DNA of 64,000 nt, taken from NCBI GenBank assembly GCA_963675745.2, contig CAXXWX010000001.1, positions 96,001-160,000 on the forward strand. Direction: 5' to 3'. The notes under the pieces were generated by a model, which saw only the letters and a program-made list of their open reading frames with translations, ran no database searches and was not told the origin of the DNA. The position numbers and the translations under genes were made by a program. This DNA comes from Phycisphaerae bacterium. GTDB lineage: Bacteria; Planctomycetota; Phycisphaerae; UBA1845; Fen-1342. This document shows, piece by piece, positions 19,820 to 63,999 of the stretch. Positions within the stretch are counted from its first letter, which is position 1; each line of letters starts with the position of its first letter.

Positions 19820-20986
19820 CTATTCGGTCCCCAGCGCCTCCGCCAGCCGTGCGCTTATGTCCGGTTGATCGGATGCAACCGCGAGCGAGCGCCGCCAGGC
19901 GCTGATCGCCGCTTGTTGCAGATCATCACGCGCCGGATCGCGCTGATACAGGGACCAAGACAACGCCGCGAGCAGGTTCAGCGCCGGCGTGTGCCTGGGC
20001 CGCGCTTTGACGACACTGGCCGCCAGCTCGCGCGCCTCTACCAGCCGGCCCAGGTGCCGTAGCGCCAGGGCCTGATTGAGGACCAGGTCCAGGTCGTCTG
20101 GCGCAAGCGCGGCGGCCGCGGCGAAGTCGGTCGCGGCCGCCTCCCAGTCGCCCAGATCGGCGCTGACTTCGGCGCGATGGGCATGTGCGTCGATGTCCGT
20201 GGGCCGGAGTGCGATCACCTGATCCCAGGCATTGCGCGCCGCCGCCAGACGCCCAAGAACCTGCCGGCAGACGGCGAGATTGTGCCAGGCATCGACACGC
20301 TGCGGGTCCAGCTTGACGACCGTATCAAGCGCGTCGGCCGCGCTGCCCCAGCGCTGTGAACGCATCAACGCACCGGCGAGGCGAAAACGCGCGGCCACAC
20401 TCTCGGGCTCAAGCGCGCACAGCCGTTCCAGCAGGTCGGCGGCTTCCGACCAGCGCTTGAGCCCATCAAGCGCCTCGACGGCATCACGCAGCGCCGCGGA
20501 GTTGTAAGGCTCCGTGGCGAGCGTCCGTTTGGCGATGTCGAGTTGCCGCTCCAGCCGTAGTTGGTTTGCATCACTCGTCCAGTGAACCGGCGTAGGGTCT
20601 GGCTCGGAGGGCGGCTCGCGGGAAACTTCCACGTCTTGAGACGGCGTCGTAGCAGGACTCGACGGATTCCCCGCCGGGTGCCCCGCGGCTTGCCGTGGGG
20701 GACGGGCTTGGGACACTTGTTGCTCTTGAGAGTCGTGAGAGTCAGTCCCCCACCCCAAGGAGTGGGGCACCCGCCGAGGGTCCGTTTGCGGGGCTTGAGT
20801 CGCCACAGGGGCTCGACCAACAGCAACGTCAGCCGCTGCGGTGTCGGGCGCAGGTGCCGATGTGGGCGCCGCCGGTGCTTGCGGCCGCGTGCGCAAGGCT
20901 GTCCATACCTGCCAGCCGGCCAATACGGCCATCAGCACGCATGCCCCGACGACGGCTGCTATCAGCCTCATACTCGGTCCATCCAC
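19820..20986 (-). CDS. Membrane-anchored TPR protein
   Basis: N-terminal hydrophobic helix, Pro/Ala/Gln-rich linker, then about 6-7 TPR-like repeats (e.g. DAWHNLAVCRQVLGRLAAARNAWDQVIALRP). Confidence 0.8.
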   Translation of the reverse strand: MDGPSMRLIAAVVGACVLMAVLAGWQVWTALRTRPQAPAAPTSAPAPDTAAADVAVGRAPVATQAPQTDPRRVPHSLGWGTDSHDSQEQQVSQARPPRQAAGHPAGNPSSPATTPSQDVEVSREPPSEPDPTPVHWTSDANQLRLERQLDIAKRTLATEPYNSAALRDAVEALDGLKRWSEAADLLERLCALEPESVAARFRLAGALMRSQRWGSAADALDTVVKLDPQRVDAWHNLAVCRQVLGRLAAARNAWDQVIALRPTDIDAHAHRAEVSADLGDWEAAATDFAAAAALAPDDLDLVLNQALALRHLGRLVEARELAASVVKARPRHTPALNLLAALSWSLYQRDPARDDLQQAAISAWRRSLAVASDQPDISARLAEALGTE

Positions 20987-21023
20987 ATACCTGCCAAAGC
21001 ACGCCCCGGTTCCGCGTGGGCAC

Positions 21024-23777
21024 TCACGTTACGTGCAGTGCCTCAACCACATTCGTACGCGCCGCGCGCCGGGCGGGAAGCATGCCGGCGAGCACACATA
21101 GTCCCACGGTCAACACGACCGACCACGCCAGGAATCCCCACGGCAAGTGCAGCGCGATCGAGAATCCCCACATGCGTTCGGTCAGGAGTGTGGTATTCGC
21201 CGCCAGGTGCAAGCCCAGCCCGATGCCCAACGCGCTGCCGATCAGTCCCAGCACGAGTGCTTCGCCGATTACCAGCCGCAGAATCTGTCCGCGCGTGGCA
21301 CCGATCGCCCGCAACATGGCGAGCTGTTTGGCCCGACTGGTAACGTTGGCGGTCATCAGATTCGCCACACCCAACGCCGCAACTATCAAGGCCATGGACG
21401 GCACCATCGTGAGTAGACGCGTCACGTTGGTGAGTTGGCTGTCGATTTCATCCTTCAGTTCGGCGACGGTGCCGTAGTTGGCATACGGCGAGCCGAGCGC
21501 GACGGCAATCTCGTGCAGCTTGTCGCGCTCGCGGAAGCGCATCCAGCGGCGTTCAATGGGGATGTTGCGATCGTAATAGGCCTCGTCGTAGCGAACGCTG
21601 AGGTACTCCCAATTCTCCTGCGCGGGCGGCCACCCATCCGGCACGGGTTCCGGCGGCAGGTCGAAGTTCGCCAGCAGGATACGCCGACCTGTCAGGTTGA
21701 ACAGCGCCTCCATGTCCGCGTTGGTCCCGATGACCGACCCGGACGCGACGACCTGCATCTGCGAATTCAACTCGAAGTAGTTGGCCGCGATGTCGAGGGC
21801 CGGCGATGTCACCACCGCGGCGATTTTGAACTTAAACGGCCGATTGGCGAAATACACAGTGATCTCGTCGCCCAGATGCTTGTCGCGCGAACGGGCAAAA
21901 TCATCGGCCACCAGTACGTGGCGGCCGCGCTCCAGCAAGGTTTCGGCGGCGGAGCGCTCGCCCTCCACAAAGGTGGCCTGGACGAGATCGAGAAACTGGT
22001 GCGGCTCGATTCCAAGAAACCACGTGAGGCCGATCTGATACTTCTGGAGCATGGGGGGACGTTCGATCACGCTCACATTGACCGCGTTACAAGTCGTGAA
22101 CGATTCGATCCCGGAGATGCCCGCTATTACTTCGTCGCAATCATCCGGGCCCGGGCGCATCTGGTCGATACTCCAGATGAATGCCGCCGGGAACTTCTTC
22201 GGAAACTGCCATCCCCCCTTGAAGCTCTCGCTGAACACCATCAGGCCGACGATCAACGACAGGCCGACCATGAGTCCGCAGGCGATTCCGGTCGAGCGCC
22301 AGACGGCGTGTCCTACCTGGTCCTGCAGCAGCCGCGTACGCACCACCAGCACACGTGCGGCCAGCACAACGGCCAACGAACCGATGATCCAAACCACCAG
22401 CGGTGCCGCGCACGCGTATGCCAGGTAGAGCAGCACGATCGCCAGCGACGCGCTGTGCACGAAGTTCGGCGAGCGCATGACCCAGAACTCCAGCACGTGT
22501 CCCTGGGCGAGGATCAGTGCGAGGGCCAGGGCAAACGCCGCCCACAACCAGACGGTTCGCGGTTTGCGGGCGCGCGGGTGCGCGGCCTCGAGTGGCGAAA
22601 CGGTCAGGGCGGCAAACATCGGCAGCACGGCGGCCACGAGTGTGGTCGCCAGCCCGCCGATCACCGCCAGTAGAATCCCCGCGCTGCTGACTGTGAATCC
22701 ACCCACGTACTGCGGCGCAAGCCAGACGCTGATCAGGGCCATGCCGAGGCCGATCGGCACGCCGGCGATCACGCCGATGGCGCCGAGCGGTGCGACTTCG
22801 AGCCCCACCAGGATAGCAAGCTGCCGGCCGGTTACGCCAACGCAACGCATCAGGCCCAGTTGCGAGATGCGCTCAATCATCCCCATGCTCAGCGTGCTGA
22901 GAATGATGAACAGGGCCGTCAACATCGCGACCGAGCTGAGCAGCGCGAGGACGAGCTCCTGCTGGCTCTGAGCGGCCTTGATCTGTTGCATGCGCCCCGC
23001 CGTGCTGCGCACAGTGGCGGTCTTGCCGGAAAGGCGTTGGCGAATTGTTGCGATAACGTTGCGTTGCGTCTGCCGGATGCCCTCCACGCTGTCGTCCGCC
23101 GAAACAACGTCGATTGATGAGATCAGGTATGGTTCATCGGTGATGGCCTGAAGCGTGCGCAACGGGAGCAGCGCGAGCCCTTTCTGGAATCGGGCGATAC
23201 GCCGGCGCTCCACCAGGCCGACAATGCGCAGCGCGCGCGGGTCTCGGCCACCGTGACGCCAGACGAGTAACACATCGCCGACGCCCACACCGTGCTCGTC
23301 GGCCAGGTCATGCTCCAGCACGCAAGCGTCCTCATCATCGCCGGCGAGCATCTGGCCGGCGGTGATGGGCCAGTCACGCACGTACGGCTCACGTGCTGGG
23401 TCTATTCCATAGAAGTCGACTTTGGGTGTCCACTCGTTCAGGCGCGGGGGATGGGCGGCGTCCGCGGCTTTGATCGGCAGTCCGGGCAAACGCCGGCTCA
23501 TCAGCGGTGCGGCGTGGCGCACACCGTCGGTCTTTTCGATGTCGCGGACCAGCAGGTGTGAGAGCTTGCCCGCGCTGCCGAGGGTTGACTCGACACTGAT
23601 GTGGCTCTTGCCGATGTACTGATTGGCCCAGTCGAGCACGGTCGTGCGGACGGATTCGAACGAGCAGGTGACCCAGACCACGGCACCGGTGCCGAGCGCG
23701 ATGGCCAGTATGGCCCCGCACGTGCGCACCGGGCGCGCTTTCCAGTTCTTGGTGGCCAGTTGCGACCAGTGCTGCAT
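21024..23777 (-). CDS. ABC transporter permease, FtsX/MacB/LolE family (duplicated)
   Basis: Two FtsX-type blocks (ERISQLGLMRCVG; SRAKQLAMLRAIGATRGQI...EA), C-terminal PARRAAR, and two periplasmic domains. Confidence 0.9.
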   Translation of the reverse strand: MQHWSQLATKNWKARPVRTCGAILAIALGTGAVVWVTCSFESVRTTVLDWANQYIGKSHISVESTLGSAGKLSHLLVRDIEKTDGVRHAAPLMSRRLPGLPIKAADAAHPPRLNEWTPKVDFYGIDPAREPYVRDWPITAGQMLAGDDEDACVLEHDLADEHGVGVGDVLLVWRHGGRDPRALRIVGLVERRRIARFQKGLALLPLRTLQAITDEPYLISSIDVVSADDSVEGIRQTQRNVIATIRQRLSGKTATVRSTAGRMQQIKAAQSQQELVLALLSSVAMLTALFIILSTLSMGMIERISQLGLMRCVGVTGRQLAILVGLEVAPLGAIGVIAGVPIGLGMALISVWLAPQYVGGFTVSSAGILLAVIGGLATTLVAAVLPMFAALTVSPLEAAHPRARKPRTVWLWAAFALALALILAQGHVLEFWVMRSPNFVHSASLAIVLLYLAYACAAPLVVWIIGSLAVVLAARVLVVRTRLLQDQVGHAVWRSTGIACGLMVGLSLIVGLMVFSESFKGGWQFPKKFPAAFIWSIDQMRPGPDDCDEVIAGISGIESFTTCNAVNVSVIERPPMLQKYQIGLTWFLGIEPHQFLDLVQATFVEGERSAAETLLERGRHVLVADDFARSRDKHLGDEITVYFANRPFKFKIAAVVTSPALDIAANYFELNSQMQVVASGSVIGTNADMEALFNLTGRRILLANFDLPPEPVPDGWPPAQENWEYLSVRYDEAYYDRNIPIERRWMRFRERDKLHEIAVALGSPYANYGTVAELKDEIDSQLTNVTRLLTMVPSMALIVAALGVANLMTANVTSRAKQLAMLRAIGATRGQILRLVIGEALVLGLIGSALGIGLGLHLAANTTLLTERMWGFSIALHLPWGFLAWSVVLTVGLCVLAGMLPARRAARTNVVEALHVT

Positions 23778-23790
23778 CCGGCCCTCCAGG

Positions 23791-24579
23791 CTAGCCTGCC
23801 AGATCCTGATAGCGCGCGGTAACCGTGGCCACGTCGTCCGGACCGGTCGGCTCGACGCCGCCCACTACGCGGCCGTCCTTGAGAATCACAACGGCACCGG
23901 CGTAGGCGGCGCCATTTGCCTCGTGAGTGACCATCAGGATTGTCTTGCGTTGCTCGTTGGCAACACGCCGCAAGAGGTCCCAGATCTGCGCCGACTGCTT
24001 CGAGTCGAGATTGCCGGTCGGTTCGTCGGCCAGAATGATGGCGGGGTCGTTCAGCAGTGCCCGTGCAATCGCCACGCGCTGTTGCTCACCGCCGGAGAGC
24101 GCGTCGGGGCGATGCTCGGCGCGCGTTTCCAGGTGTACGAGCGCCAGCAGTTCATCAACACGAGATGAGATTCTTCGCAACGGCGTGCCGTCCACGAGCA
24201 TGGGCAGTGCCACATTCTCGCGCGCCGTCAACGTCGGCAGCAGGTTGTAATCCTGAAAGATGATGCCCATGCGGCGACGGCGAAAGATCGTGCGCGTGCG
24301 GTCCGACATGCGCGCGAGGTTTCGGCCTTCGACGACGACCTCGCCGGCGGTCGGCGGTGTCAGCCCGCCGACCAGGTGCAACAGGGTGCTCTTGCCCGAA
24401 CCGCTGGCCCCCATTATCGCGGTGAACGAGCCCGCGGCCACGCGTAGATCCAAACCGTCGAGGGCCACGACGCGCAGACCTGAGGTGTCGTAGACCTTCT
24501 GGACGCCGTTGACCTCGAGGACCACATCGGTCGGCGGCTGACTGTCGGTGGCTGCATTCGCGGCATTCGGTTCAAGCAT
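23791..24579 (-). CDS. ABC transporter ATP-binding protein, LolD/MacB family
   Basis: [33 protein letters not shown] and MVTH. Confidence 0.93.
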
Positions 24580-24699: not shown

Positions 24700-26697
24700 C
24701 TAGCGACCAGTGTTTACGCAAAGCGGGACGAGGGGCGTTGGGGTGCCGCGCTTGGCGTTCATCAGGTCCATGAAGCGGCTCGTGGCGCTGCGGCGACCCT
24801 CCTCCATCGACACAAGCTGAAGCGCGATGGGTTTATCGGAAAGCACGGCAACCTCGGCCCCGGCGCGCAGCGTGGTCGGCGACGCCGCCAGCGACGGGAG
24901 ATCAACGCCACGTTGCAGCGCGGCGCGGTACCACGTGCGCAAGGATTCATCGAGCGTCCAGGCCGACGTCGTCAGAACCGTGGCGGAAGGCATGTATATG
25001 ACCCAGCTCGGCGGCGTGGTGCTGCGCCATTCGGTGCCGGCCAGCAACGTGCCTTGCTCAAAACCAAACCAGGTACCGGTCAGCGGCGCGTCAGAGGCGA
25101 TGATGATGCGCGGATCCTTGAGCCCCGCGGGCGGACCGGGAGCCGCCAGGGCCACGCGCAACACCTGCTCGGGACTGGTCTGCGGCGGGATGATCTTCTG
25201 CAAATACTGATCGGTGTATTCAACCGTGGCCATGCGGGCGGCGTACTGCTCGCGATACACGGCCACGCCGCAATACCGCGGCGCGCTGCCGGGCGTGCTG
25301 CCGCGCAGCTCAAACATCTCGACAAAGAGATAAATGAGCTGGCTTTCGCCTAGCTCGCTCTTCAACTGGGCGATGCTCAGCGGCGCGATGTTCACGCCGA
25401 GCTCGGCGGCCTTGGCTCGCTGGATGCTGGCAAACAGCGCATCGGCGGCGCGCAGGTCGGTCACGTTACCTGCGCTGGAAAGCTGCTGCTCGACGGTTGC
25501 CTGGGCGGCAGCCCGCTCCTGCCGGGAGCGACCGCGAAAGGTCGAGGTGAGCGGCAAGCGTGCGGGTTCGACGTAGCGCCCCGCGGCGGCGCGCGCCGCC
25601 CAGCCGTTCTGCGGGTCAGCGACCGCATCCCAGCCGCGGCCGTCCACAGCACGCACCGCCTGGACCAGCGGCGTCACTTGTGCGGCCAATTGCTGACGCG
25701 CGGTCGAATCCGCCTCGTCACCGGCCGAAAGCAACCGCGCCAAAGCGGACCAGATGCGCAGATTGTCTTGTTCGAGACGATCGGCCATCTGCGACCACGC
25801 CTGCGGCGTGTCGGTGTAAGGTATCGGGCTGGCGGTTGCGGCGCGATCGGTGGCATCAACACCGATGGCACGGTCCAGCAGAGCCGCGGCGATCTGGAAT
25901 GACCAGTCCACCGCCTGGCGCTGCTCGGGCAGACTGATCGGCCCGGCCGGGTTTGATGTCCAGGTTGCGTGCTCGGCGATCAGGTCATTTCGCAGTGCCA
26001 GCAGGCGGGGGAAAGCGGCCAGATCGGGAGAACTTGTCAAGCTCGCCAGGGTTGTCCGCGGTGCATCCCACACCTGCGGATCACGTCGGGGGATCAGCTT
26101 CGCGGTTGGCACGCCGCGCGAAAGCAGCGTGAACTTGACGTACGCTTCGAGATCATAGTAGTTGGCCTGCGCGTCCATCCATTGGCGCAGGGCATCTGGA
26201 TCGGTGATGTCGTCGGTCGCCTGAAGTTGCGCGATGAGCTCGTCGAGCAGAGCCAGCTCGTCACCGCACGCGCTCAACAGCCCCGTCCAGCGCTCTGACG
26301 CGGCCTCGGCCAACTGCTGGGCGGCCGCGCGGCCGTTAGGTTGCTGCCGCGTGTAGCGCACCTGCTCGACCAGCCAACGGGCCTGGTCACACGGTGTCGA
26401 CAGCAGCCGGCTAAGTTCGATTAAATCAGCGGGTGGCAGGAATTCGTCGCCCGCGGCACCGCGCAGCGTCTGCACGATTGCGTTGAGCGCCTCGCGCTCG
26501 GCGGGTTCCTGATACGCGGGTTGATTCGCCTGGGCCACGGCGGGGCCGGCAAATGCGGTCAGCAGCGCCAGGCACACAAGCAGTTGAGCCGATCGCCGAA
26601 GACAGGTTGTACCGGTCGTTAACACGCTAAGCCGCTCGCGGACAACACACACGCAGAACCTCGCGGCGGCACCGCACCACCGCCTCCCGCTTCGCAT
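24700..26697 (-). CDS. Exported helical protein with degenerate CHAT-like C-terminal region
   Basis: Signal-like LLVCLALLTAFAGPAVAQ (true start may be GTG 26625). C-terminal LSIAQLKSEL, RIIIASDAPL and VIYMPSATVL resemble CHAT-domain strands. Confidence 0.55.
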   Translation of the reverse strand: MRSGRRWCGAAARFCVCVVRERLSVLTTGTTCLRRSAQLLVCLALLTAFAGPAVAQANQPAYQEPAEREALNAIVQTLRGAAGDEFLPPADLIELSRLLSTPCDQARWLVEQVRYTRQQPNGRAAAQQLAEAASERWTGLLSACGDELALLDELIAQLQATDDITDPDALRQWMDAQANYYDLEAYVKFTLLSRGVPTAKLIPRRDPQVWDAPRTTLASLTSSPDLAAFPRLLALRNDLIAEHATWTSNPAGPISLPEQRQAVDWSFQIAAALLDRAIGVDATDRAATASPIPYTDTPQAWSQMADRLEQDNLRIWSALARLLSAGDEADSTARQQLAAQVTPLVQAVRAVDGRGWDAVADPQNGWAARAAAGRYVEPARLPLTSTFRGRSRQERAAAQATVEQQLSSAGNVTDLRAADALFASIQRAKAAELGVNIAPLSIAQLKSELGESQLIYLFVEMFELRGSTPGSAPRYCGVAVYREQYAARMATVEYTDQYLQKIIPPQTSPEQVLRVALAAPGPPAGLKDPRIIIASDAPLTGTWFGFEQGTLLAGTEWRSTTPPSWVIYMPSATVLTTSAWTLDESLRTWYRAALQRGVDLPSLAASPTTLRAGAEVAVLSDKPIALQLVSMEEGRRSATSRFMDLMNAKRGTPTPLVPLCVNTGR

Positions 26698-26763: not shown

Positions 26764-29700
26764 TCAGCGACGACGACGCTCGCTCTGCCGCAGCAGGTGC
26801 AGCCCGACGAGGCAGGCGACGATCACCGGCATCATTGCGAATCCGCAGAACGGAACCGCCGGCGCCGGCTGCGCCTCGGTCGGGCTCTGTGCGAGCGGAT
26901 CGAGCTCGTTGGGCACGCCGTCATTGTCGAGGTCGGCATCACAAGCGTCACCAAGTCCATCGCCGTCATAGTCAAGCTGGTTGGCGTTGCTGGCGGTCGG
27001 GCAGTTGTCAGTCGGAATGAGCTGCTCGGTGGGATCATCGAGCAAATCTAGCCAACCGTTGCCCACGATGGCCCCGTTGGTGTCGCGGATCAGGCGATAG
27101 GTCCCAAACAGCGCCGCGCCCTGATTGGCGCTGCCGGCGCGGGGGTCAAACGGTCCGGCGGTGCCCTGACCGAGGCCGCCGACGTCGTAGCCGTCACTTA
27201 GCGTGCCATCGTTGCTGAAGTCGATGCCGAAGGCTTGCTCCAGGGTGGCCTCGTTGTAGCGTGTGAAGTCCGGGAACCCGTCGCCGTTGGCATCCGGCGC
27301 CTCGAGGACGCCGTCGCCATCCTGGTCGAAGTCCAGCAGCAATCGCTGGAACTCGGCTATGGTGGCGGGGAAGTCGTCGACATTCTCGCCGGCCGCCTGG
27401 AAGTCGGCGCGGAACTGAGTCAGGTCGGCGTCATCAAACACACCGTCGCCGTTGGCATCAAACCCCCAGCGGGCGGGGTTGATCTGCGGCGCGGGATCAG
27501 TCGCGTCCGGCAGGCCGTCCTCATCAGTATCGGCCAGCGTCGGGTCGGTGCGGATACCCGGAATCGGCTTGCTGACCGCCCGGCCGCGCCGGGCGATGAG
27601 ATCGCTCAAGCCGATGCTCTCGGTAACGAGGCTGGCAAAGTCCAGATCGCCGTTGGCATTCAGATCTTCGCCGTCGTTCAGCGCTCCGTCGCCGTTGGCA
27701 TCCTCGGCGAGAATAGCCCAGCGCGCCCAGGTGTTGACCTCATCCCAGTCACTGATGCCATCGCCATCCGTATCGGCGACGCGTGGGTTGGTCATCACGC
27801 GAGTGACATACTGGCTCTGGAAGCGGCCGGAAATGGAATCAGCCGGGAAGCGCGTCAGCGTGAAGCCGTCGCCTTCCTCCTTGTCACTGAGTCCGTCGCC
27901 ATCGGTGTCCCACATGCGCGGGTCGGTTTCGTTGGCATCGACAACGCCATCCCGGTTGACGTCTTCCTCGCCATCGGTCAGACCATCATTGTCGGTATCC
28001 GAATCAGCGGGATTGGTGTTGATCTGCCGTTCGAGCGAATCACTGAGACCGTCGTCATCCGTGTCGATCTCGGTATCGAACGTGCGCGTGTTCTCCGCCG
28101 GAATCTCGGGTGAGCCGGCGTTGTCGGCCGGGAAGACCACACCGGCCGGGATCAGGAAGCCTTCTTCCTCGTCACGCCGGATCAACCCGTCGCCGTCGAT
28201 ATCGGCGTTCGGGTCGGCGGTGGAGTTCGGCGTGGCCGCGATGTTGTTGGTCTCATCCTGCTCGGTCACGGCGGCGCCATCATCGATCTGGGCCTTGAGG
28301 AAGAAGTTGACATCCGCAAACGCCGTCGACGGGATGTTCAGCGTGACCGTGCGTGAGTGAGCACCGACGGTCTTGTCGGCGGCGTCGGTAATGGTGACCG
28401 TCGCAAACTGGACATCACCGGCGAGCGAGTCGATGTCCGAATCCGCCGACACGTAGAAAGCGATGGTGAAGTCCTCGCTGACCTGGTTCTCGTTGACGCT
28501 GTAGTTGATTGTCGCGCTGAAGTCCTCATCAAGCGCCGTGCCGGGGAACGCCAGACGCGTGAGCACCAGATCGACCGTGAAGGCCTCGGCCGTGCTGGCG
28601 ACGTTGTTGGTGACCTCTTCCGACTCGGTCACGAGCCCGACCGGGTCAAGCTCGGCGACAACAACCACATTGCTGGCGGTGGTGATGCCGCGGGACAGGA
28701 ATTCGGTTGGCAGGTCGATGGTCATGGTGTGCGCGCTGGGCGTCACCTGATCGGCGGCGGTCACCGTATCGCGGAGCACATCATCGATCGCGCCGTCGCC
28801 GGTCGTATCCAAGCCGAGCCGCACGGTGAAGCTGGGCACGTCAGCGGGACTGTTGACGACGTAGGTGACCCGGGCGCTCGATGAAGCGCCGCGGATACTC
28901 GCAATCACGAGCTCGACGGCCAGATCAACGTTGAGCGTCCTCGTCGCGAAGTTGTCGGTTTCGATCGTCTCGAGAATCGCGTTGGCGCTGTCGAGCTGCA
29001 CGACAAGCTGGTCGCCGTTGCGGACGATGCCGTTCAGATCCGGCCGTATATCGCCGAGCGAAACCGTATGCACACCAGGCGCCCGCGAACTGGCGTCGTT
29101 GACGTCCACGAATCCAAACTCGGTATCGATCGGCGTGGCATTGTTCGGGTCGCGCTCCAGACCGAACGTGATGCGGAATGGATCGACGGTGGTCGAACCG
29201 GTGACGGTGTATGTGATCGACAAATCCGTGGTTGTGCTGGTCTGTGCCAGCGTGATCGTGGGACCTGAGAGGTCGGTACCCGCGGTGATGCTGAACAAAT
29301 TCGAATTTACGGTGAGCGCTGCGGAGGTGGCGGTCAGCCGATAGCCGCTGCACACCGTATCAACCGTCAGGTTTTCGGTGGCGGTCCACTCCGCCAAGCC
29401 GGCGACGGCATTGATGGTGGCCGTACCGCCAAGCGTGCCGCCACAGCCCGCCGGGTTCACCAGCGTCAGCGCGATGGGGTCGTTGTTACCAACCACGCGG
29501 TTGTTGGAGGCGTCGATGACCTCCACGGAGACCACGAGCGGCGTGCTGATGTCAGAGTTAGAGGGCTGGACAACATAGCGCAGGCCGGTGGCCGCGCCCG
29601 GATCGAAGACGATCGTCGCCTGCTGGGTAATGGTCACGCTATCGGTAGCATCGATCGCGCGGAGGGTAACCGTCTTGGCTTCGGTGGCGGTCACGTCGAA

Positions 29701-36909: not shown

Positions 36910-36997
36910 GAGAAATCACTCCTCGGGCTCACCGTTCAGCAGTCCTCGTGTTATACGACAACAACGACGATTTGACTTCGGCACGTAATATCGCGTA

Positions 36998-37026
36998 ACG
37001 CTATTCGAGCGCCTCGGGTAAGTCAA
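36998..37026 (-). promoter_or_regulatory. Candidate sigma70-type promoter for the minus-strand cluster
   Basis: TTGACT (37026-37021), 17-nt spacer, TAGCGT (37003-36998), in the divergent intergenic region. Confidence 0.35.
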
Positions 37027-37244
37027 GTCCGAGACGCGGGTTAGTTGTCGGCGCGGCGCGCGCGCCGACCCGGCAAGGGGACACACTGTAACGCCGTCAC
37101 TTCGGCGCCATTTTCCGCGCTACCATTGTCGTGAGACACGGAAGCGTATAAGAAGCGCATCTGTCCTGCTTGTGAGTGCAGGCGGATATCCCCTCACGGT
37201 GCCGGGGCTGGCTGGCGCCCGCGAACACCCAGGCGACTTTGGTC

Positions 37245-51311: not shown

Positions 51312-51374
51312 GGACTCCAGCGGAACGGTAAGCGCCGCCCACCACGGGCCGCGCACCCTTTTGGCGTGGGTCAT

Positions 51375-56443: not shown

Positions 56444-56920
56444 ATGCCTACCCCCTGTAATCTGAAGATCGCCGAGTACCCGGGTTCGTCTGAGAAGGAA
56501 GCTCGGGAAGATACTTCCGATGTCTTCGAGATTGAGCATCACATTCACCAGCCGGTTGATATGACGACCGGCGAGGCGACCGGCGTGCGCGTGCACAGCC
56601 CGATGCGCATCGTGAAGGTCCTCGACAAGGCCAGCCCGGGCCTGCAGAAGGCACTGTGCACCGGCCAGAACCTGAAGGAAGTCATCCTGGACTTCTATCG
56701 CATCGATCCGGCCACGCGCTCGGAGTCGAAGTACTACACGATCACGTTGCGCAACGCCCGCGTGGTTGACGCGCGTCCGTACATGCCGATGAGCTTCGTG
56801 CCGGCCAACGAGTCGTATCGGCACATGGAGCAGGTCAGCTTCGTGTACGAGGAGATCGAGTGGAACTGGCTGCCGGACAGCGTCGTTGAAATGGACAAGT
56901 GGCGTTCGCCGGGCGGCTAA
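56444..56920 (+). CDS. hcp: T6SS tube protein Hcp (TssD)
   Basis: AGGAG RBS; MPTPC start; G.RVH.P, K.LDKASP.L..AL..GQ.L and E.VSF.YE.I.W...D.WR. Confidence 0.93.
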   Translation: MPTPCNLKIAEYPGSSEKEAREDTSDVFEIEHHIHQPVDMTTGEATGVRVHSPMRIVKVLDKASPGLQKALCTGQNLKEVILDFYRIDPATRSESKYYTITLRNARVVDARPYMPMSFVPANESYRHMEQVSFVYEEIEWNWLPDSVVEMDKWRSPGG

Positions 56921-57256
56921 GCGTCAATCTCGCGACGTATTGGGGCGGGTGTGCGTCCGACAGGTATGACCGGTTGGACACCTGCCCCATTGTCGGGTTC
57001 CCAGTGCAGGCACGGCCGGGAGCGTCAAACACTCCCGCTCGCGCCTGTGGTGTATCGTTGCCCGTGGCTGCGTGTCACGCGCTCGGTGACACATGGGGGC
57101 CGGCGCCTGTCGATCAGTGGCCTGCTCTCCGACCTGGGCCGGATCAACACAATGGTTCGGACGCCCCATTGGAGCGCATTGTCCGGTCACGATGGGCGCG
57201 AGGCGGCGTCGCTGACAGGTGCAGACGGCTGATTCCAGCTTCGTAGAGGGTCGATT

Positions 57257-57688
57257 GTGGGCCGCGAGAAGATGTTGCTGGACCGCATCGCCAGCCTCCA
57301 GGACGACGGCGATCGCGGCCGATACGACGCGACCGTCACCGAAGACCTGGAGTCGCTGATGGAATCGGTGCGGCGGAACCTGACGCGTCTGTTGAACGCG
57401 CGCCAGGGCATGGCCGAGGGGCTGTCTGACTACGGCCTGCCGGCGATGTCAGACGTTCTCTCGGGCAGCGACAAGTATATCCGTCGGGTGCAGGACGCGG
57501 TCCGTACGACGATCGAGCGGTATGAGCCACGGTTGCGAAACGTGCGCGTGACGCACCAAACCGCCGAGGGCACGTTGCAGACGCTCGTGTTCCGCGTGGA
57601 CGCCGTGATCGTATCAGAGAGCGGCCAGCACCGCGTCTGGTACGAGACTTCGTTCGCCCCGAATGGCCGCTTTGATGTAGTAGGCTAG
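57257..57688 (+). CDS. tssE: T6SS baseplate TssE (gp25-like)
   Basis: LLDRI, SVRRNLTRLLNARQG, DYGLP and IERYEPRL. Confidence 0.92.
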   Translation: MGREKMLLDRIASLQDDGDRGRYDATVTEDLESLMESVRRNLTRLLNARQGMAEGLSDYGLPAMSDVLSGSDKYIRRVQDAVRTTIERYEPRLRNVRVTHQTAEGTLQTLVFRVDAVIVSESGQHRVWYETSFAPNGRFDVVG

Positions 57689-57833: not shown

Positions 57834-59639
57834 GTGGATAACACGTATTACCAGGACGAGTTGCGATACTTGCGCGAGGTGGGGCCGGAGTTCGCGCGTT
57901 CGAATCCGGAGATGGCGCGCTACCTGGCTGACGCCGGCTCAGACCCAGATGTCGAACGTCTCCTGGAGGGTGTTGCGTTTCTCTGCGGTCGCATCCGCCA
58001 GAAGCTTGATGATGAGCTTCCCGAGTTCACCGCGAGTCTCATGTCGCTGCTGTGGCCGCACTATCTGCGTCCCATTCCGTCGATGACGATTCTTGAATTG
58101 CTGCCTGAAGTTGAAGGCATGCAGGCGCCGATGGCCGTCAACGCCGGCGCCGAATTCGCCAGCCGGCCAATCGACGGAACGCGCTGTCGCTATCGTTCAA
58201 CCTGGCCGGTGACACTGCGCCCCTGGGTACTGGGTAACGCGGAACTGGAGACGCTTCCGGCCGAACCCGCCCGCCTGAAACTGACCTTCCGGGCCGCCGC
58301 GAAATCGAAGCTCGAAGATCTCGAGCTCGGCTCCGTACGGCTGCACCTGGCGGGTGATCCACCAACGGCGTTCGCGCTGTACCTGCTGCTTGCCGCGCAC
58401 GTGGCATCGGTAACCATCAGCGACGGATCAAGCCGTGCCAAGCGACCCGAAGTACATTTGCCCGCGACGGCGGTAAAGGCCGCGGGGCTCGACCGCGAGG
58501 CCCCCCTGCTGCCATATCCGCCCTACGTGTTTCCCGGCTACTACCTGATCCAGGAATACTTCACGCTGAACGAGCGTTTTCTGTTCATCGACGTCGATGG
58601 GCTGGACCGCGCTGTCGATCAATTGGAGTTGAGCGACACGGTCGAGGTGACCTTCACGTTCAATCGCCGGCTCGAGTCGTATCCGCTCGTGTCACCCGAG
58701 AACATTCGGCTGCACTGCGTACCGGTCATCAATCTCTTCCCGCACAACGCGGAGCCGATTCGGCTGGACCATGAGCGCGTGCGGTATATGGTCCAGCCCG
58801 CGCGGGCTGGCATCGCCGACCGGCGACACGCGGAGGTCTATTCGGTTGATCGGGTGCTGGGCCTGGTGCGCTCTCAAGGTCTGGAATCGCACGAATTCCA
58901 GCCGTTTTATTCGTTCTCGCACGTCGGCTCGGCTGATCCGCGCGACGCCACGTACTATCAGTGCCACATCACGCCGAGCGTGATCGGCAAGGACGCGCGC
59001 TGGGGCACCGACACGTTTCTCTCGTTTGTGGTGGGAGATGAGCCGGGGGCGCTGCCCGCGGAAGAGACGATCTCGGTCGAGCTCACGTGTACGAATCGTG
59101 ACCTACCGCGTGAGTTGCGCGCCGGCGACATTTGCGAGCCGACCGACCGCTCGCCGGCCGGCGCCCGCTTTCGCAACCTGCTCAAGCCCACCCCGACGGT
59201 CAGCCCGCCGCTGGGACAGGGGCTGCACTGGCGACTGATTTCACACATGTCGCTCAACTATGTATCACTGAGCAACATCAAACACTTCAAGGAACTGCTG
59301 CGCGTTTACGATTTTGAAGCGGCACTTGATGCCCAACGCGCCGTGGCCCACCAACGCAGGCTCGATGGGATCCGCGCGTTGGACGCGGTCTATCGCGAGC
59401 GCATGGTGCGCGGCGCGCCGGTGCGCGGGCTGCTGGTCAACCTGGAATTGGACGAGGACCACTACGCCGGCGAAGGCGACGCTTTTCTGTTCGCGGCGAT
59501 TCTGGATCGTTTCATCGCGGCTTACGTAACGATCAATGCGTTTACGCAATTGGAGGTGCGTTTCACCCAGACCGGACAGATACACACGTTTCCGCCTCGC
59601 TGGGGCGAGCAATTCACGCCGATGGATGAGCGCCCATGA
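57834..59639 (+). CDS. tssF: T6SS baseplate TssF
   Basis: YYQDELRYLRE.G.EFA, DPDVERLLEGVAFL, WPHYLRPIPS, LHCVPVINLF, CTNRDLP and WRLISHMSLNY. Confidence 0.96.
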   Translation: MDNTYYQDELRYLREVGPEFARSNPEMARYLADAGSDPDVERLLEGVAFLCGRIRQKLDDELPEFTASLMSLLWPHYLRPIPSMTILELLPEVEGMQAPMAVNAGAEFASRPIDGTRCRYRSTWPVTLRPWVLGNAELETLPAEPARLKLTFRAAAKSKLEDLELGSVRLHLAGDPPTAFALYLLLAAHVASVTISDGSSRAKRPEVHLPATAVKAAGLDREAPLLPYPPYVFPGYYLIQEYFTLNERFLFIDVDGLDRAVDQLELSDTVEVTFTFNRRLESYPLVSPENIRLHCVPVINLFPHNAEPIRLDHERVRYMVQPARAGIADRRHAEVYSVDRVLGLVRSQGLESHEFQPFYSFSHVGSADPRDATYYQCHITPSVIGKDARWGTDTFLSFVVGDEPGALPAEETISVELTCTNRDLPRELRAGDICEPTDRSPAGARFRNLLKPTPTVSPPLGQGLHWRLISHMSLNYVSLSNIKHFKELLRVYDFEAALDAQRAVAHQRRLDGIRALDAVYRERMVRGAPVRGLLVNLELDEDHYAGEGDAFLFAAILDRFIAAYVTINAFTQLEVRFTQTGQIHTFPPRWGEQFTPMDERP

Positions 59640-60814
59640 CCGCCGCCGACACAGCCCCTACGCATCAAACCGCCGAGCACGCGCGCCGGCCGGATTTGCT
59701 TGAGCGGCTGCTAAGCACGGCGTACCGGTTCGATTTCTTCCAGGCCGTCTGGCTGCTGGAACGCTATCGTCCGGGCAGCGTGCCTGTCGGTCGCCGCGGG
59801 CCGGTCGCCGCGGAACGGCTGCGCTTCCGCCCGGGGCTGTCGATGGGTTTCCCGCCGACCGATGTCGGCAGCCTGACGGAGTTCCAGGATCCTTCGCGCC
59901 GCGATCCAAACTACCTCATCGAAGTGCTCTTCATGGGCCTGTACGGGGTTTCCACGCCGCTGCCGCTGCACTACGCCACCGACTTTCTGCGGTCCGTCGA
60001 ACGCGGCGTGCCTTCGGCGGCGGATACCGCGGACGAAGGTGGGCCGGCGCAGCGTCACGAGCGGCCGCCAAACGGCAGCCCGACGCGCGACTTCGTCGAC
60101 GTCTTTCATCATCGCGTTGTCTCACTCTTCTACCGGAGTTGGCTGAAGTATCGCTATGAGCGGATGTTCGGCCAGCCGGACCGCGATGTGATTACCAGCT
60201 ACCTGTTGAGCCTGATTGGCTGCCCGGCGGCATATGACGCGCCGACCCTGGGAGTTAATCCGATCTACCTGCTGCGCTACGCAGGCGTGTTGACGCAAAA
60301 ACCCCGCTCGGCGATCACACTCCAGGGCGTGTTGCACGACTATCTCGACCTCACGCCGGTCAAGGTCCGGCAATTCGTCGGCCAATGGGTCACGCTGTCG
60401 GAGTCGGATCTCAACCGCATTGGAGAGGCCAACTGTGTGCTCGGCGGCAACTTGACCGTCGGCGAACAGGTTTACGATCTCGGCGGCGCGTTCTGTATCA
60501 CGATTGGTCCGGTCAATTGGCAGACCTACGTGGGATTCGTGCCCGGCGGCCGGCTGTTTTCGCAAATCCGGGCGCTTACCAAGCTCTACTGCTGTGATCC
60601 ACTCACATTCAATATTGAGGTACGTTTGCTACCGAACGAGGTGCCGGAAACGCAGCTCACCTCGGACGCCACGTCCGGGCGCCTGGGCCTGACGAGTTGG
60701 GTGCGGACCGGACCTATGGGTGAGACGGCTGAGACATTCGACGCACGCGCGGACGCATCAGCGGCACCAGGGGTGTTTGTCGCCCCACCCGCAACCGCCA
60801 AGGCCGTCGCATAA
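59636..60814 (+). CDS. tssG: T6SS baseplate TssG
   Basis: FDFFQAVWLLE, FMGLYG..TPLP, DFVDVFHHR, YRSWLKY and RLGLTSW. Overlaps the tssF stop (ATGA). Confidence 0.94.
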   Translation: MTAADTAPTHQTAEHARRPDLLERLLSTAYRFDFFQAVWLLERYRPGSVPVGRRGPVAAERLRFRPGLSMGFPPTDVGSLTEFQDPSRRDPNYLIEVLFMGLYGVSTPLPLHYATDFLRSVERGVPSAADTADEGGPAQRHERPPNGSPTRDFVDVFHHRVVSLFYRSWLKYRYERMFGQPDRDVITSYLLSLIGCPAAYDAPTLGVNPIYLLRYAGVLTQKPRSAITLQGVLHDYLDLTPVKVRQFVGQWVTLSESDLNRIGEANCVLGGNLTVGEQVYDLGGAFCITIGPVNWQTYVGFVPGGRLFSQIRALTKLYCCDPLTFNIEVRLLPNEVPETQLTSDATSGRLGLTSWVRTGPMGETAETFDARADASAAPGVFVAPPATAKAVA

Positions 60815-60874: not shown

Positions 60875-63646
60875 GTGAAAGACATGAACGACAGCACGAC
60901 CGGCTCCACCAGCGAGAGTTTGCGCGAGTTGCTGAGGCGCTGCGACAACGCCTGCATCCAGGCGTTTCAGGGCGCCGCCAGCGTCTGCCAGACGCGCGCT
61001 CACTACGAGGTAACCCCCGACCATCTCATGCTGCGCCTGTTGGACGAGACGGTCGGCGATGTCACCGCGATCTTCAACACATTCAAGGTGGACCGCACAA
61101 GGTTGCGCCGCGCCGTGCAGCGGGCACTGGAAGTGCTGCCGACCGGCCATCGCGGGAGACCCGCGCTTTCGCCCAAACTCGTCGAGCTTTTCCAGTCGGC
61201 GGGCGTTATGTCGGACGAGTTCGGCTTTGACCAGATCCGCAGCGGGGCTCTCATACTCGCGTTTGCCCTCAATCCTGAGCATCTGGCGGCTGCGGAGCAC
61301 ACGCCCGAGCTCGAGCGCATTGACGTCGATCAGTTGCGCGATCACTTTCACGAGATTCTGACGGGAGCGCCGGCCGAGGCGCCCGGCCCCGAAGGCCGTC
61401 CGCGCGGCGCCGGAATGGGTGCCGGCGACGGCGCGCTCGCCCAGTTCACGGTCGATCTGACGGCCCGCGCCGCCGCCGGTGAGATCGACCCGGTGTTCGG
61501 CCGTGACCAGGAAATCCGCCAGATGATCGACATTCTCGGGCGCCGGCGGAAGAACAACCCGATTATCGTCGGCGAGCCCGGCACCGGAAAGACCGCGATC
61601 GTCGAGGGGCTGGCCCTGCGCATGCACCAGGGCGACGTGCCCCCCTTCCTGAAGGGCGTGCGGCTGATCTGCCTCGACCTCGGACTGCTGCAAGCCGGGG
61701 CCGGCGTCAAGGGCGAGTTTGAAAACCGCCTGAAGAACGTCATCCGCGAAATCAAAGAGAGCGAGCAGCCCATCGTCACGTTCATCGATGAAGCCCACAT
61801 GATGATCGGCGCCGGCGGGGGCGGCGGCGGTGACGCGTCAAACCTGCTCAAGCCGGCGCTGGCACGCGGCGAGCTGCGCACCATCGCGGCCACAACGTGG
61901 GCCGAGTACAAGAAATACTTCGAGAAGGATGCCGCCCTCGAACGCCGTTTCCAACTCGTACGCTGCAACGAGCCGACGATCGAAAACTCCATCGTCATGC
62001 TCCGCGGGCTGAAAGACAAGTACGAGAAACACCACAAGACCATCCTGCTGGACGAGGCGGTCACCGCGGCCGTTGCGCTTGCCAAACGCTACATCAGCGG
62101 GCGGTTCCTGCCGGATAAGGCGGTTGACCTGCTGGACACGGCGGCGGCCCGCGTCTCGGTGGGCCTGAGCACGACGCCGGCAGCGCTCGAGGACGTCGGG
62201 CGCCGGCTTCACAGCCTGGCCACCGCCATCGCCGCGCTCAATCGCGACGAGGCGGCCGGCGTCGAGATCGACAAGGACACACTCCAGGAGATGGAGACCG
62301 AGCGCACCAATCTCCTCGCCGAAAGCGAGCGGCTCGACGCCCAGTGGAGAGCCGAGCTGGAGCTGGTCAACGAAATCCGCGATCTGCGCAACAAGCTCAT
62401 GGCAAAGACCGGCGTAGGAATCGCCGGGGACGAAGAGGCCAAGGCTGAAGAGCCGGCCGAGAAACCCGCGGAAGCCGGCGAGACCGAAGCCGCCGAGGCC
62501 CCCGCACCAGCGGAGGCCGAGGCCGAGGCCGAGCCCGAAGATGCGCTCGACGAGGGCGAGTTGCGCCGCAAGATCGACGAGGGTATGGCCAAGCTCCAGG
62601 AGTTGCAGGGCGAAGATCCACTCCTGTACGCCCAGGTCGACGAGGGGGCGGTTGCGGCCGTGCTCGCCGATTGGACCGGCGTACCGGTGGGCAAGCTGGT
62701 TCGCGATGAGATTGCCGCCACGCTCGAAATGGAGGAACGTCTGCGCAGCAGAGTCGTCGGACAGGATCACGCGTTGAAGGTCGTGGCCGAAAAGCTGCGG
62801 GCCGCCAAGGCCAGCATCGGCAACCCCGAGCAACCCATGGGCGTATTCCTGCTGGTCGGGCCCAGCGGTACCGGCAAGACCGAATTGGCCCTGGCCGTGG
62901 CCGATCTGCTGTTCGGCGGCGAGCGTTTTCTCACCAGCATCAACATGTCGGAGTTCATGGAGAAACACACCGTATCGCAACTGAAGGGCTCACCGCCGGG
63001 CTATGTCGGCTATGGCGAGGGTGGCGTGCTGACCGAAGCGGTACGTCAGAGCCCCTACTCGGTCGTGCTGCTCGACGAGGTCGAGAAAGCCCACCCCGAT
63101 GTCATGAACCTTTTCTACCAGGTCTTCGACAAGGGACAGCTCGCCGACGGCGAGGGCCGTGTGATCGACTTCAAGAACACCGTCATCTTCCTGACGAGCA
63201 ATCTCGGCACCGATGTCATCCAGCAGATGTGTGAGTCCGGCGAAGACATCGATATTGCCGAGCTGAAGGAATCGGTTTACCCCCACCTGCGCGAGCACTT
63301 CAAACCCGCGCTGGTGGCGCGCATGACGGTCATTCCGTATTTGACGCTGCCGGCCGAGATCCTCGAGATGATCGCCAAGATCAAGCTGCGCAAGGTCGGC
63401 AAACGCCTGGCCGAGGCGCACGGGATAAGTTTCAACGTGGATGACGCGGTCTATACAACCATGGCCGGTCGCTGTGGTCAGGTTGATCTCGGTGCGCGGC
63501 AGATCGACCACCAGATTGACGGCGCCGTGCTGCCGGTGTTGTCACGCCGGCTGCTGGAGCAGATGGCGACCGAAGAAATGCCCACAAAGCTGACGATGGG
63601 TGTGGGTGAGGACGGCGAGTACGTGTACACGTTCGCGCAGGCGTAG
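60875..63646 (+). CDS. clpV: T6SS AAA+ ATPase ClpV (TssH)
   Basis: RRRKNNPIIVGEPGTGKT, GAGVKGEFENRLK, TTWAEYKKYFEKDAALERRF, GPSGTGKT and LKGSPPGYVGYGEGGVLTEAVR. Confidence 0.96.
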   Translation: MKDMNDSTTGSTSESLRELLRRCDNACIQAFQGAASVCQTRAHYEVTPDHLMLRLLDETVGDVTAIFNTFKVDRTRLRRAVQRALEVLPTGHRGRPALSPKLVELFQSAGVMSDEFGFDQIRSGALILAFALNPEHLAAAEHTPELERIDVDQLRDHFHEILTGAPAEAPGPEGRPRGAGMGAGDGALAQFTVDLTARAAAGEIDPVFGRDQEIRQMIDILGRRRKNNPIIVGEPGTGKTAIVEGLALRMHQGDVPPFLKGVRLICLDLGLLQAGAGVKGEFENRLKNVIREIKESEQPIVTFIDEAHMMIGAGGGGGGDASNLLKPALARGELRTIAATTWAEYKKYFEKDAALERRFQLVRCNEPTIENSIVMLRGLKDKYEKHHKTILLDEAVTAAVALAKRYISGRFLPDKAVDLLDTAAARVSVGLSTTPAALEDVGRRLHSLATAIAALNRDEAAGVEIDKDTLQEMETERTNLLAESERLDAQWRAELELVNEIRDLRNKLMAKTGVGIAGDEEAKAEEPAEKPAEAGETEAAEAPAPAEAEAEAEPEDALDEGELRRKIDEGMAKLQELQGEDPLLYAQVDEGAVAAVLADWTGVPVGKLVRDEIAATLEMEERLRSRVVGQDHALKVVAEKLRAAKASIGNPEQPMGVFLLVGPSGTGKTELALAVADLLFGGERFLTSINMSEFMEKHTVSQLKGSPPGYVGYGEGGVLTEAVRQSPYSVVLLDEVEKAHPDVMNLFYQVFDKGQLADGEGRVIDFKNTVIFLTSNLGTDVIQQMCESGEDIDIAELKESVYPHLREHFKPALVARMTVIPYLTLPAEILEMIAKIKLRKVGKRLAEAHGISFNVDDAVYTTMAGRCGQVDLGARQIDHQIDGAVLPVLSRRLLEQMATEEMPTKLTMGVGEDGEYVYTFAQA

Positions 63647-63708
63647 GAAAAGGGTGTTAATCAGTTGGCCGGGCGCGTTGCGAGAAGGTTTTCGAAAGGA
63701 GTCACGAC

Positions 63709-63999
63709 ATGAATTCGATCGTCGAAGAAGAACTGCGGATGTACCTGGTGAATCGCCTGCACTACGACCCCTATCAGTGCGGGACGATCCTCGAGGTTAT
63801 GCGCGCGCTGGCGCGGATGGCTGGTCATGATTTTGACCACCGCTTTCGGCACGCCGGACTCGGCGCCGGCCCGGAGGCGCGCGTCGCCGCCGGACTGGTT
63901 GACTTGGCTATGGGCGGCGGTGGCTGCGAGACGTCGCCGTACACGATTCGCAAGCACATTGACGACTGGCTGCTCAAGAACCCGGCCAAGGGCCGCTAG
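63709..63999 (+). CDS. Small hypothetical protein downstream of clpV
   Basis: AAGGAG at about 63696-63701, ATG 63709, 96 aa with GC-rich codon usage. No recognisable motif. Confidence 0.6.
   Translation: MNSIVEEELRMYLVNRLHYDPYQCGTILEVMRALARMAGHDFDHRFRHAGLGAGPEARVAAGLVDLAMGGGGCETSPYTIRKHIDDWLLKNPAKGR

Follow-up and report, generated by a model that had tools for sequence, protein, structure and literature searches.

An undescribed envelope module with a pseudokinase receptor, an outer-membrane barrel and a giant adhesin beside a type VI secretion system in Phycisphaerae

Detailed knowledge of what controls the place and time of firing of a type VI secretion system (T6SS) is limited to the phosphorelay found in a few proteobacteria. 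For the H1-T6SS of Pseudomonas aeruginosa, the TagQ/TagR complex is reported to engage PpkA through the FGE domain of TagR, dimerizing PpkA, and events at the outer membrane are described as being relayed to T6SS assembly through this receptor dimerization (PMC13713981). TssW of Acidovorax citrulli is described as an outer-membrane anchor that positions the T6SS (PMC12607579), and TasL of Vibrio fischeri as a T6SS-linked attachment factor that is required for killing in liquid or hydrogel (PMC9040878). The reported architecture of Slam proteins, or the type XI secretion system (T11SS), consists of an N-terminal periplasmic TPR domain and a 14-stranded outer-membrane barrel, encoded beside lipoprotein genes (PMC8406197). 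Here we describe a locus that is a differently built candidate for T6SS control. It consists of an envelope gene module next to a T6SS and lies in a window of 64,000 nucleotides, by which we mean the whole stretch of DNA analyzed, from the metagenome-assembled genome of an uncultured aquatic planctomycete of the Phycisphaerae, 5.2 Mb in 28 contigs (G000:C1:96001-160000). The module probably helps the cell to grip or sense target cells.

A literature search combining Phycisphaerae with T6SS found only incidental papers, and one combining Planctomycetes with type VI secretion found none among the matches listed. The module brings together a giant adhesin with a sorting signal, a barrel resembling that of Slam, a free protein with the FecR fold, and a dead kinase with a putative FGE-like sensor end. 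These four parts have never been reported in combination, and each belongs to an unnamed family.

A conserved envelope module head to head with a T6SS

Two conserved gene blocks meet head to head in the window, a T6SS on the plus strand and an envelope module on the minus strand (Table 1). The first block runs from a coiled-coil protein through ClpV. The second comprises a membrane receptor together with the minus arm, which encodes two mini-lipoproteins, a TPR-barrel protein, a FecR-like protein, a giant adhesin and a secreted 665-aa protein, and it is an undescribed envelope module of one Phycisphaerae group. An earlier reading made from the letters of the window alone (the sequence-only reading) had named a near-complete T6SS on the plus strand, a divergent intergenic region of about 335 bp, a TPR beta-barrel, a FecR-like protein, a pseudokinase, and, on the minus strand, two small lipoproteins and a giant adhesin with immunoglobulin-like (Ig) domains. 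All of these were recovered at the places that had been given for them, with the family, fold and orthologue evidence presented below.

The proteins of the window were mapped by tblastn onto the contigs of relatives, and the presence of the module was surveyed in a class sample of 301 genomes and a relatives sample of 41 genomes. In 22 of 22 loci, the gene directly after the barrel gene was the FecR-like one; an adhesin gene lay downstream of it in all 16 loci with enough sequence. An orthologue of the 665-aa protein followed the adhesin in 8 of the 12 loci that extend at least 3 kb past it; beyond this gene, no conserved gene was found. Conservation of the minus-strand core genes next to this T6SS extends over several genera and to two further families. 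A contig in a Burkholderiales bin (L048) also carries barrel, FecR-like and adhesin genes, 46–61% identical to the Phycisphaerae module, and is probably misbinned.

Four arrangements of the receptor gene were observed. It is located on the T6SS strand in the window and in most of the same family; on the module strand, with the divergent gap shifted to the coiled-coil gene, in G152 (family f2) and, in a divergent version, in G030 (family f7); beside the barrel gene with no T6SS nearby at L049, L050, L053 and L055; and on a contig apart from both the barrel gene and the T6SS in G011, G021 and G208. For G030, a 357-aa protein at the position of the FecR-like protein matches the FecR-like profile weakly (hhalign E 0.016, probability 2.8). 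The T6SS of G042 starts at the coiled-coil gene, and no receptor is found within 10 kb of it. This layout indicates that the unit is formed by the receptor plus the minus arm and that the T6SS block starts at 42200. Judged from gene order, the pseudokinase belongs genetically with the adhesin module and not with the T6SS. The division of the locus into a T6SS arm and a minus-strand arm, as drawn by the sequence-only reading, thus holds for the conserved minus core beside the T6SS, and the pseudokinase has to be moved across to the adhesin module.

The start of the receptor at the ATG at 37245 is favored by the aligned N-termini of its orthologues. The protein contains a truncated kinase fold, four repeats of about 60 aa, one transmembrane helix (at about aa 945–968) and a variable insert, and it ends in a conserved domain of about 190 aa; the cytoplasmic part comprises 940 aa. 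Scanned alone, the kinase domain reached 35 bits with the Pfam Pkinase model (cut-off 31.7). It reads VHGGLAPGV where two active kinases of relatives read IHCDLKPAN or IHRDLKPSN. HGG in place of HRD and LxPG in place of LKPxN were found in 13 of 13 orthologues examined, and DFG is kept. The same 13 proteins are devoid of a Gly-rich loop because their N-termini lie only a short distance, a few residues, ahead of the strand that aligns with VAIK. By these residues, the receptor is a conserved pseudokinase and not a recently decayed kinase. A scan of 25 open reading frames (ORFs) from 19.8 to 63.6 kb yielded no match to FHA or PP2C. A phosphorelay of the PpkA type is excluded because the kinase is dead and the cluster contains neither FHA nor PP2C.

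The C-terminal domain of the receptor was compared with FGE domains in several ways. In an Atlas feature search, 21 of 30 hits were FGE-sulfatase (score 0.91). Alignment with 13 FGE domains by hhalign gave a probability of 80.5 and an E of 1.3e-5, over 18 columns only, which contain an LPTxxEW..AA motif. A profile of the domain retrieved 65 proteins from 1.84 billion representatives, mostly receptors of 1400–1800 aa. When the 17 weakest and 4 strong ones of these 65 were scanned, 5 of the 21 (P0114, P0117, P0119, P0122 and P0123, with library E values from 8.7e-9 to 8.6e-4) carried Pfam FGE-sulfatase above cut-off on the matched stretch. Pairwise comparison of the receptor with kinase-FGE proteins by BLASTP gave nothing significant outside the catalytic loop. 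Membership of the C-terminal domain in the FGE-sulfatase superfamily is probable but unproven.

The AlphaFold2 (AF2) model of the barrel protein (mean pLDDT 84.5) shows TPR-like helices at aa 35–315 and 14 strands at aa 331–672, ending in a C-terminal Phe. Foldseek hits were BcsC, OmpG (TMt 0.63) and CymA, and the Atlas feature search led to TPR and SlipAM (Slam) clusters with scores of 0.94–0.95. The family is small, with only 58 relatives among 5.8 billion clusters. Barrel loci of relatives were found by an alignment query of genome contigs; a single-protein query gave none. Profile searches of PDB sequences gave nothing useful for the barrel or for the FecR-like protein. Smaller barrel relatives (444–454 aa, 26–29% identical) were noticed at L067:8217-14500 and L069:7771-14436, where active Ser/Thr kinases that carry an FGE-sulfatase domain at their C-terminus are encoded 2.5–3 kb away; this proximity may be due to chance because it was seen in only 2 of 11 such loci. 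At L067, a gene for an extracytoplasmic function (ECF) sigma factor lies between the barrel relative and the kinase, which has a zf-HC2 anti-sigma motif.

The model of the FecR-like protein contains the signaling fold at aa 38–208, followed by a long conserved helix (aa 221–263) and a conserved Pro/Gly-rich tail. Foldseek retrieved 4m0n (E 5.5e-6) and PupR (6ovk_R, E 1.8e-4), with a probability of 1.00. VIA-align gave a Z of 14.1 to BDI_1681 (4m0h_A; root-mean-square deviation 2.5 Å, 137 residues aligned) and of 14.0 to PupR (6ovm_R; 2.7 Å, 135 aligned), and the next hit had a Z of 8.5. Complex prediction for the barrel and the FecR-like protein yielded ipSAE values of 0.78, 0.72 and 0.78; none of three controls exceeded 0.00. 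The ipSAE mark is reached by 116 of 157 solved complexes and by 2 of 215 mismatched pairs, a calibration that holds only roughly because the complex runs used custom alignments. At least 35% of the contacts agree between the runs, and the pLDDT of the partner is 60–65. The long helix of the FecR-like protein is docked inside the TPR domain of the barrel protein in the predicted complex, and binding of the two proteins is thus a prediction of the models. The mini-lipoproteins encoded next to the barrel gene comprise a mere 34–40 residues when mature.

The adhesin contains about ten Big_1/invasin-type Ig domains and TSP3 calcium-binding repeats. Its C-terminus, which consists of a Cys-Gly motif, a transmembrane helix and an Arg cluster, is kept in 15 of 15 orthologues; the NCBIfam CTERM models did not match it. 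Pfam detected no barrel domain in the adhesin itself, and the sole barrel is encoded by the separate gene. The sequence-only reading had pointed to a duplicated module shared by both arms. The duplication is real: adhesin aa 1044–1251 and receptor aa 998–1212 (nt 40167–40811) are 60% identical over 215 aa (BLASTP, E 2e-67), compared with 32–45% for the remaining Big_1 repeats of the adhesin versus the receptor copy. It occupies a segment of the receptor whose length differs between orthologues, with extremes of about 47 and about 373 aa. In 17 of 17 further receptor orthologues of full length, tblastn placed the Ig segment on adhesin genes and never inside the receptor; G001, from the same genus, was too fragmented to tell whether its receptor carries the insert. 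Therefore, the Ig module is not a general coupling device. The sequence comparison identifies it as a lineage-specific insertion, an exchange between two neighboring genes.

Linkage to the T6SS and possible roles of the module

We tentatively propose, with somewhat less than even confidence, that display of the adhesin by the complex of the barrel and the FecR-like protein, together with clustering of the receptor, signals to the T6SS. The docking of the barrel and the FecR-like protein is predicted; the display of the adhesin by the barrel and a signal into the T6SS are inferred. In this scheme, the barrel and its FecR-like partner would set the adhesin on the cell surface or retain it there. 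The state of this outer-membrane complex, for example the load on the adhesin when a neighbor is bound, would be read in the periplasm by the putative FGE-like domain of the receptor. Without phosphorylation, the receptor might then cluster or act as a scaffold via its cytoplasmic part, and thereby license or position T6SS assembly at the contact site. Here, TagR-like and PpkA-like parts would be fused into a kinase-dead equivalent of TagQ/TagR-PpkA. A more elaborate version, an envelope-spanning sensor of contact or tension, appears doubtful: in this chain, the adhesin would pass on the binding of a neighboring cell via the barrel to the FecR-fold protein and the mini-lipoproteins, and these would act on the fusion of a dead PpkA-like and a TagR-like part, and clustering of the fusion would nucleate the T6SS at the contact. 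If true, this would be the first phosphorylation-independent, adhesin-coupled aiming device for a T6SS.

The distribution of the module argues for a tie to the T6SS. In the class sample, the 11 genomes with strong matches to the FecR-like gene are also those with the C-terminal domain of the receptor; weak extra matches occurred in G028 (receptor domain) and in G307 and G162 (FecR-like gene). TssC was present in all 11 module genomes versus 43 of the 290 others, and the FecR-like gene plus the receptor was found in 0 of the 247 TssC-negative genomes. The relatives sample contains the module in 12 of the 41 genomes, 11 of which have TssC. The twelfth is G022, where one contig breaks off within the receptor gene and another begins with a fragment of TssF. 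None of the 8 T6SS-negative genomes of the same family contains the module, including G003, which belongs to the same genus and is 97% complete. The module abuts the T6SS in 11 of the 19 informative genomes (G000, G019, G015, G004, G002, G180, G301, G152, L037, L038 and L041).

Several results weigh against a signal into the T6SS. In 8 of the 19 informative genomes (G011, G021, G208 and G041–G045), no T6SS gene adjoins the module; 6 of these genomes carry only a second type of TssC, 44–47% identical to that of the window. Where the blocks are split, the receptor is not found beside the T6SS, and it is located beside the barrel in G041–G043 and G045; staying away from the T6SS in this way fits a module that works on its own. 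The genome counts suggest a functional tie and are not proof of it, because the genomes are related and linked genes are gained and lost together. The relation of the receptor to FGE domains rests on a short central stretch, the Pfam FGE-sulfatase model does not reach the C-terminal domain, and a PDB profile search with this domain gave no FGE hit. The barrel is without a Slam/DUF560 sequence match: PF04575 did not match it at E values up to 10, and none was found in 5 genomes with distant barrel relatives, where the control genomes gave no signal either. The sequence-only reading had asked for a comparison of gene neighborhoods as a check on the co-occurrence of the minus arm and the T6SS, and in this comparison all of the searched genomes that have the module also have a T6SS, with the two unlinked in the eight named above.

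This splitting of the blocks is also what would be expected if they were unrelated neighbors, that is, if an autonomous adhesin, biofilm or surface-signaling system merely sat on the same island as the T6SS or had an ancestral position in common with it. Two further results point in the same direction: distant barrel relatives (25–37% identity) occur in G010, G028, G038 and G040, where neither TssC nor TssF was found, and the shared intergenic region does not contain a conserved motif in an alignment of 8 genomes. Nevertheless, we regard this explanation as rather improbable, given that the FecR-like gene and the receptor are absent from all TssC-negative genomes of the class and all T6SS-negative genomes of the family, and that the neighborhood is kept across three families despite the inversion of the receptor gene.

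A larger share of our doubt concerns an explanation by adhesion only, which we consider unlikely, yet a serious competitor. The module would build and regulate an adhesin that brings prey or kin into contact in water, similarly to TasL, and the pseudokinase would control the export or turnover of the adhesin without a signal to the T6SS. TasL sets a precedent, being described as an attachment factor linked to a T6SS (PMC9040878). The retention of the receptor with the adhesin module, and not with the T6SS, in split genomes is in agreement with this explanation, and so are the confinement of the module to T6SS-bearing genomes and its occurrence with two TssC types, one 75–94% and the other 44–47% identical to that of the window. 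On the other hand, in most same-family genomes with the T6SS type of the window, the receptor gene has been inverted to lie on the strand of the T6SS, at the head of its genes. In addition, a cytoplasmic part of 940 aa is large for a mere regulator of export, and the receptor shares the kinase fold and the putative FGE-like domain with the PpkA/TagR sensor.

Lastly, the barrel and its partners could be structural, i.e., outer-membrane components that the T6SS needs to cross or to be anchored in the planctomycete envelope. TssW, described as anchoring a T6SS in the outer membrane (PMC12607579), would be the model for this role, and it would suit a T6SS with a TssJ candidate that is unrecognizable by sequence and an unusually long TssM of 1599 aa. 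We judge this to be very improbable. G039 has the T6SS type of the window (TssC 75% identical) and no barrel match, TssC is present in 8 of 29 module-free relatives, and the module is unlinked in 8 genomes.

The T6SS block, neighboring genes and coordinates

The core proteins of the T6SS-i type, TssA, TssB, TssC, Hcp, TssE, TssF, TssG, ClpV, TssK, TssL and TssM, are encoded in one co-directional run, and all scored above the Pfam cut-offs. VgrG and PAAR were not found within the window. The same genome encodes VgrG at G000:C19:334002-335819 (TIGR03361, 302 and 276 bits) and PAAR at C19:328894, downstream of VgrG, and at C3:5212; the T6SS is thus complete at the genome level because both are present on other contigs. 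The coiled-coil protein, 32–62% identical in relatives and without a family or PDB match, remains with the T6SS where the receptor is elsewhere (G042). The 224-aa lipoprotein before tssK, the TssJ candidate, matched nothing in Pfam or among PDB sequences. Identity of the TagF-like protein in relatives is 44–54%. Pfam and NCBIfam recognize the N-terminal third of TssM only, and its remainder is conserved in relatives at 35–56% identity. A 115-aa ORF between hcp and tssE (56899–57246, plus strand), with neither a family match nor a tblastn match in relatives, is probably not a gene.

Just beyond the window, a 606-aa protein (G000:C1:160156-161976, plus strand, equal to L003:1156-2976) is a fusion of TssB-like and TssC-like parts, with matches to VipA (E 5e-20) and N-terminal VipB (E 5e-40) and without the C-terminal VipB_2 domain. 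Copies of this fusion (570–750 aa) are present in nearly every T6SS-bearing relative, often 0–20 kb past ClpV and with a conserved 139-aa neighbor. The second T6SS type, with TssC 44–47% identical to that of the window, occurs in the same family in G007, G011–G014, G018, G021, G023 and G024; the window proteins recognize only its TssB, TssC and Hcp.

The divergent intergenic region yielded no sigma-70-like promoter match and no terminator-like match. A GC-rich palindrome in its middle (37047–37069) is not conserved in the 8-genome alignment. The blocks are flanked by housekeeping genes, on the left for a Na/H exchanger, UvrD and RecJ, and on the right for GH130, alanine racemase and PriA.

Two assignments of the sequence-only reading to the minus arm were abandoned. 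The 665-aa protein had been called CHAT-like; Pfam CHAT matched 0 of 10 orthologues at E values up to 1, and no Pfam, NCBIfam or PDB sequence match to the protein was obtained. The genes for an ABC ATPase, an FtsX permease and a TPR protein at 19.8–24.6 kb had been listed as members of the arm; they were not found beside the module in G019, G015, G004, G022, G002 or 22 further loci, and a role for them in the module was dropped for lack of conservation.

CPBP proteases have been proposed to process C-terminal sorting signals that contain a Cys (Haft preprint, 10.1101/2023.06.07.544157). At 2660–5648 on the minus strand, an ABC-2 permease fused to a CPBP/Rce1-like intramembrane protease (2660–4900) is encoded beside an ABC ATPase. 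The fusion gene is the sole CPBP protease gene nearby, 22 kb from the module, and is not conserved beside it: a pair that is 45–46% identical is present about 10 kb from the module in G019 and was not seen near the module in G015 or G022. In the window, the pair is flanked by two plus-strand genes for large beta-propeller proteins, one at 1–2589 (Beta_propel, E 7e-130) and the other at 5767–8022 (12 LVIVD repeats, E 3e-139).

Table 1. Features of the locus, in window coordinates. Lipoboxes, signal peptides and the transmembrane helix of the receptor were called by eye.
Feature	Position	Strand	Remarks
TPR protein	19820-20986	-	
FtsX/MacB permease	21024-23777	-	
ABC ATPase	23791-24579	-	
Secreted 665-aa protein	24700-26697	-	Signal peptide; last gene of conserved module
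Giant adhesin, 2087 aa	26764-33027	-	Signal peptide; Pfam Big_1 E 3.9e-74, 10 stretches; TSP_3
Adhesin segment aa 1044-1251 (last Big_1 plus next Ig-like domain)	29275-29898	-	Duplicated in receptor
Secreted FecR/PupR-fold protein, 373 aa	33261-34382	-	Signal peptide; AF2 model
Outer-membrane TPR plus barrel protein	34382-36403	-	Signal peptide; alternative GTG start at 36496
Mini-lipoprotein A, 53 aa	36515-36676	-	Lipobox LGGC; tblastn at same position in 4 loci, at least 55 bits
Mini-lipoprotein B, 66 aa	36709-36909	-	Lipobox AGSC; tblastn at same position in 8 loci, at least 55 bits
Divergent intergenic region	36910-37244	.	335 bp
Membrane pseudokinase receptor, 1582 aa	37245-41993	+	First gene before T6SS; 1605 aa from 37176
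Coiled-coil protein, 425 aa	42200-43477	+	Conserved first gene of T6SS block
Lipoprotein, 224 aa, at TssJ position	43474-44148	+	Lipobox QAGC; conserved before tssK
TssK	44239-45660	+	Pfam T6SS_VasE 8.5e-65
TssL	45543-46463	+	Pfam DotU 3.9e-15
TssM, 1599 aa	46512-51311	+	Pfam IcmF-related_N 1.4e-54; unusually long
TagF-like protein (weak)	51366-52379	+	Pfam TagF_N E 0.0032, TIGR03373 E 0.0024, both below cut-off
TssA	52643-54208	+	Pfam, above cut-off
TssB	54243-54773	+	Pfam, above cut-off
TssC	54844-56325	+	Pfam, above cut-off
Hcp	56444-56920	+	Pfam, above cut-off
TssE	57257-57688	+	Pfam, above cut-off
TssF	57834-59639	+	Pfam, above cut-off
TssG	59636-60814	+	Pfam, above cut-off
ClpV	60875-63646	+	Pfam, above cut-off

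Comparison with known systems

The locus shares several features with TagQRST/PpkA of the P. aeruginosa H1-T6SS. Both have an inner-membrane receptor with a kinase fold at a T6SS cluster that includes a TagF-like gene, a sensor arm with lipoproteins, and a periplasmic domain of the FGE superfamily, which belongs to TagR there and is putatively the C-terminus of the receptor here. In contrast to the H1-T6SS with PpkA, PppA and Fha1, the kinase is dead in 13 orthologues and the cluster is devoid of FHA and PP2C. Unlike in TagQRST, the putative FGE-like domain is part of the receptor itself, and there is no conserved TagST-like ABC transporter beside the module. The TPR barrel, the FecR-fold protein and the giant adhesin are without a counterpart in the H1-T6SS. 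The analogy to TagQRST-PpkA drawn by the sequence-only reading gains a point that this reading had not noticed, the probable relation of the receptor end to the FGE-sulfatase superfamily, and it does not extend to the phosphorelay or to TagST.

Further resemblances are partial. By its description, the TssW-PpkA-Fha system of A. citrulli, in which an outer-membrane anchor and an inner-membrane kinase-fold protein set the site of the T6SS, is similar to the module; unlike the latter, it is reported to rely on Fha phosphorylation and condensates (PMC12607579). TasL of V. fischeri, likewise compared by description, is a large surface protein for attachment with a genetic link to a T6SS and is reported to be needed for contact in liquid, but it is described as a single lipoprotein, whereas here a six-gene module with a receptor is found. 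A kinase-dead membrane protein as the hub of a secretion system has been described for YukC/EssB of the type VII secretion system T7SSb (10.1101/2020.05.09.085852), which is, however, a different secretion system in a different lineage. The C-terminus of the adhesin resembles the MYXO-CTERM sorting signals, e.g., of TraA, which are reported to end large surface proteins with a Cys motif, a transmembrane helix and an Arg cluster (10.1101/2023.06.07.544157; PMC11980579). It differs from them in that no curated CTERM model matches and that the CPBP protease gene is 22 kb away. Unlike in inverse autotransporters such as intimin and invasin, the Big_1 passenger is not fused to an N-terminal barrel of its own.

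The barrel protein resembles Slam/T11SS in its combination of TPRs with a 14-stranded barrel and in its position beside lipoprotein genes. It differs from Slam in the lack of a DUF560 sequence match and in the length of its TPR domain, which is about 280 aa compared with about 140 aa reported for NilB; in addition, the mini-lipoproteins are too short for the 8-stranded barrel that is typical of Slam cargo. In comparison with FecR/PupR signaling, the secreted FecR-like protein lacks a cytoplasmic anti-sigma part as well as any membrane anchor other than the signal peptide, the partner predicted for it is a TPR protein with a 14-stranded barrel and not a 22-stranded TonB-dependent transducer, and the module does not contain an ECF sigma-factor gene. 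Nevertheless, it has the same periplasmic fold (Z 14) as FecR/PupR and is likewise predicted to bind to the periplasmic domain of an outer-membrane barrel. Even if the link to the T6SS fails, the pair of barrel and FecR-fold protein would represent a new use of this cell-surface-signaling fold.

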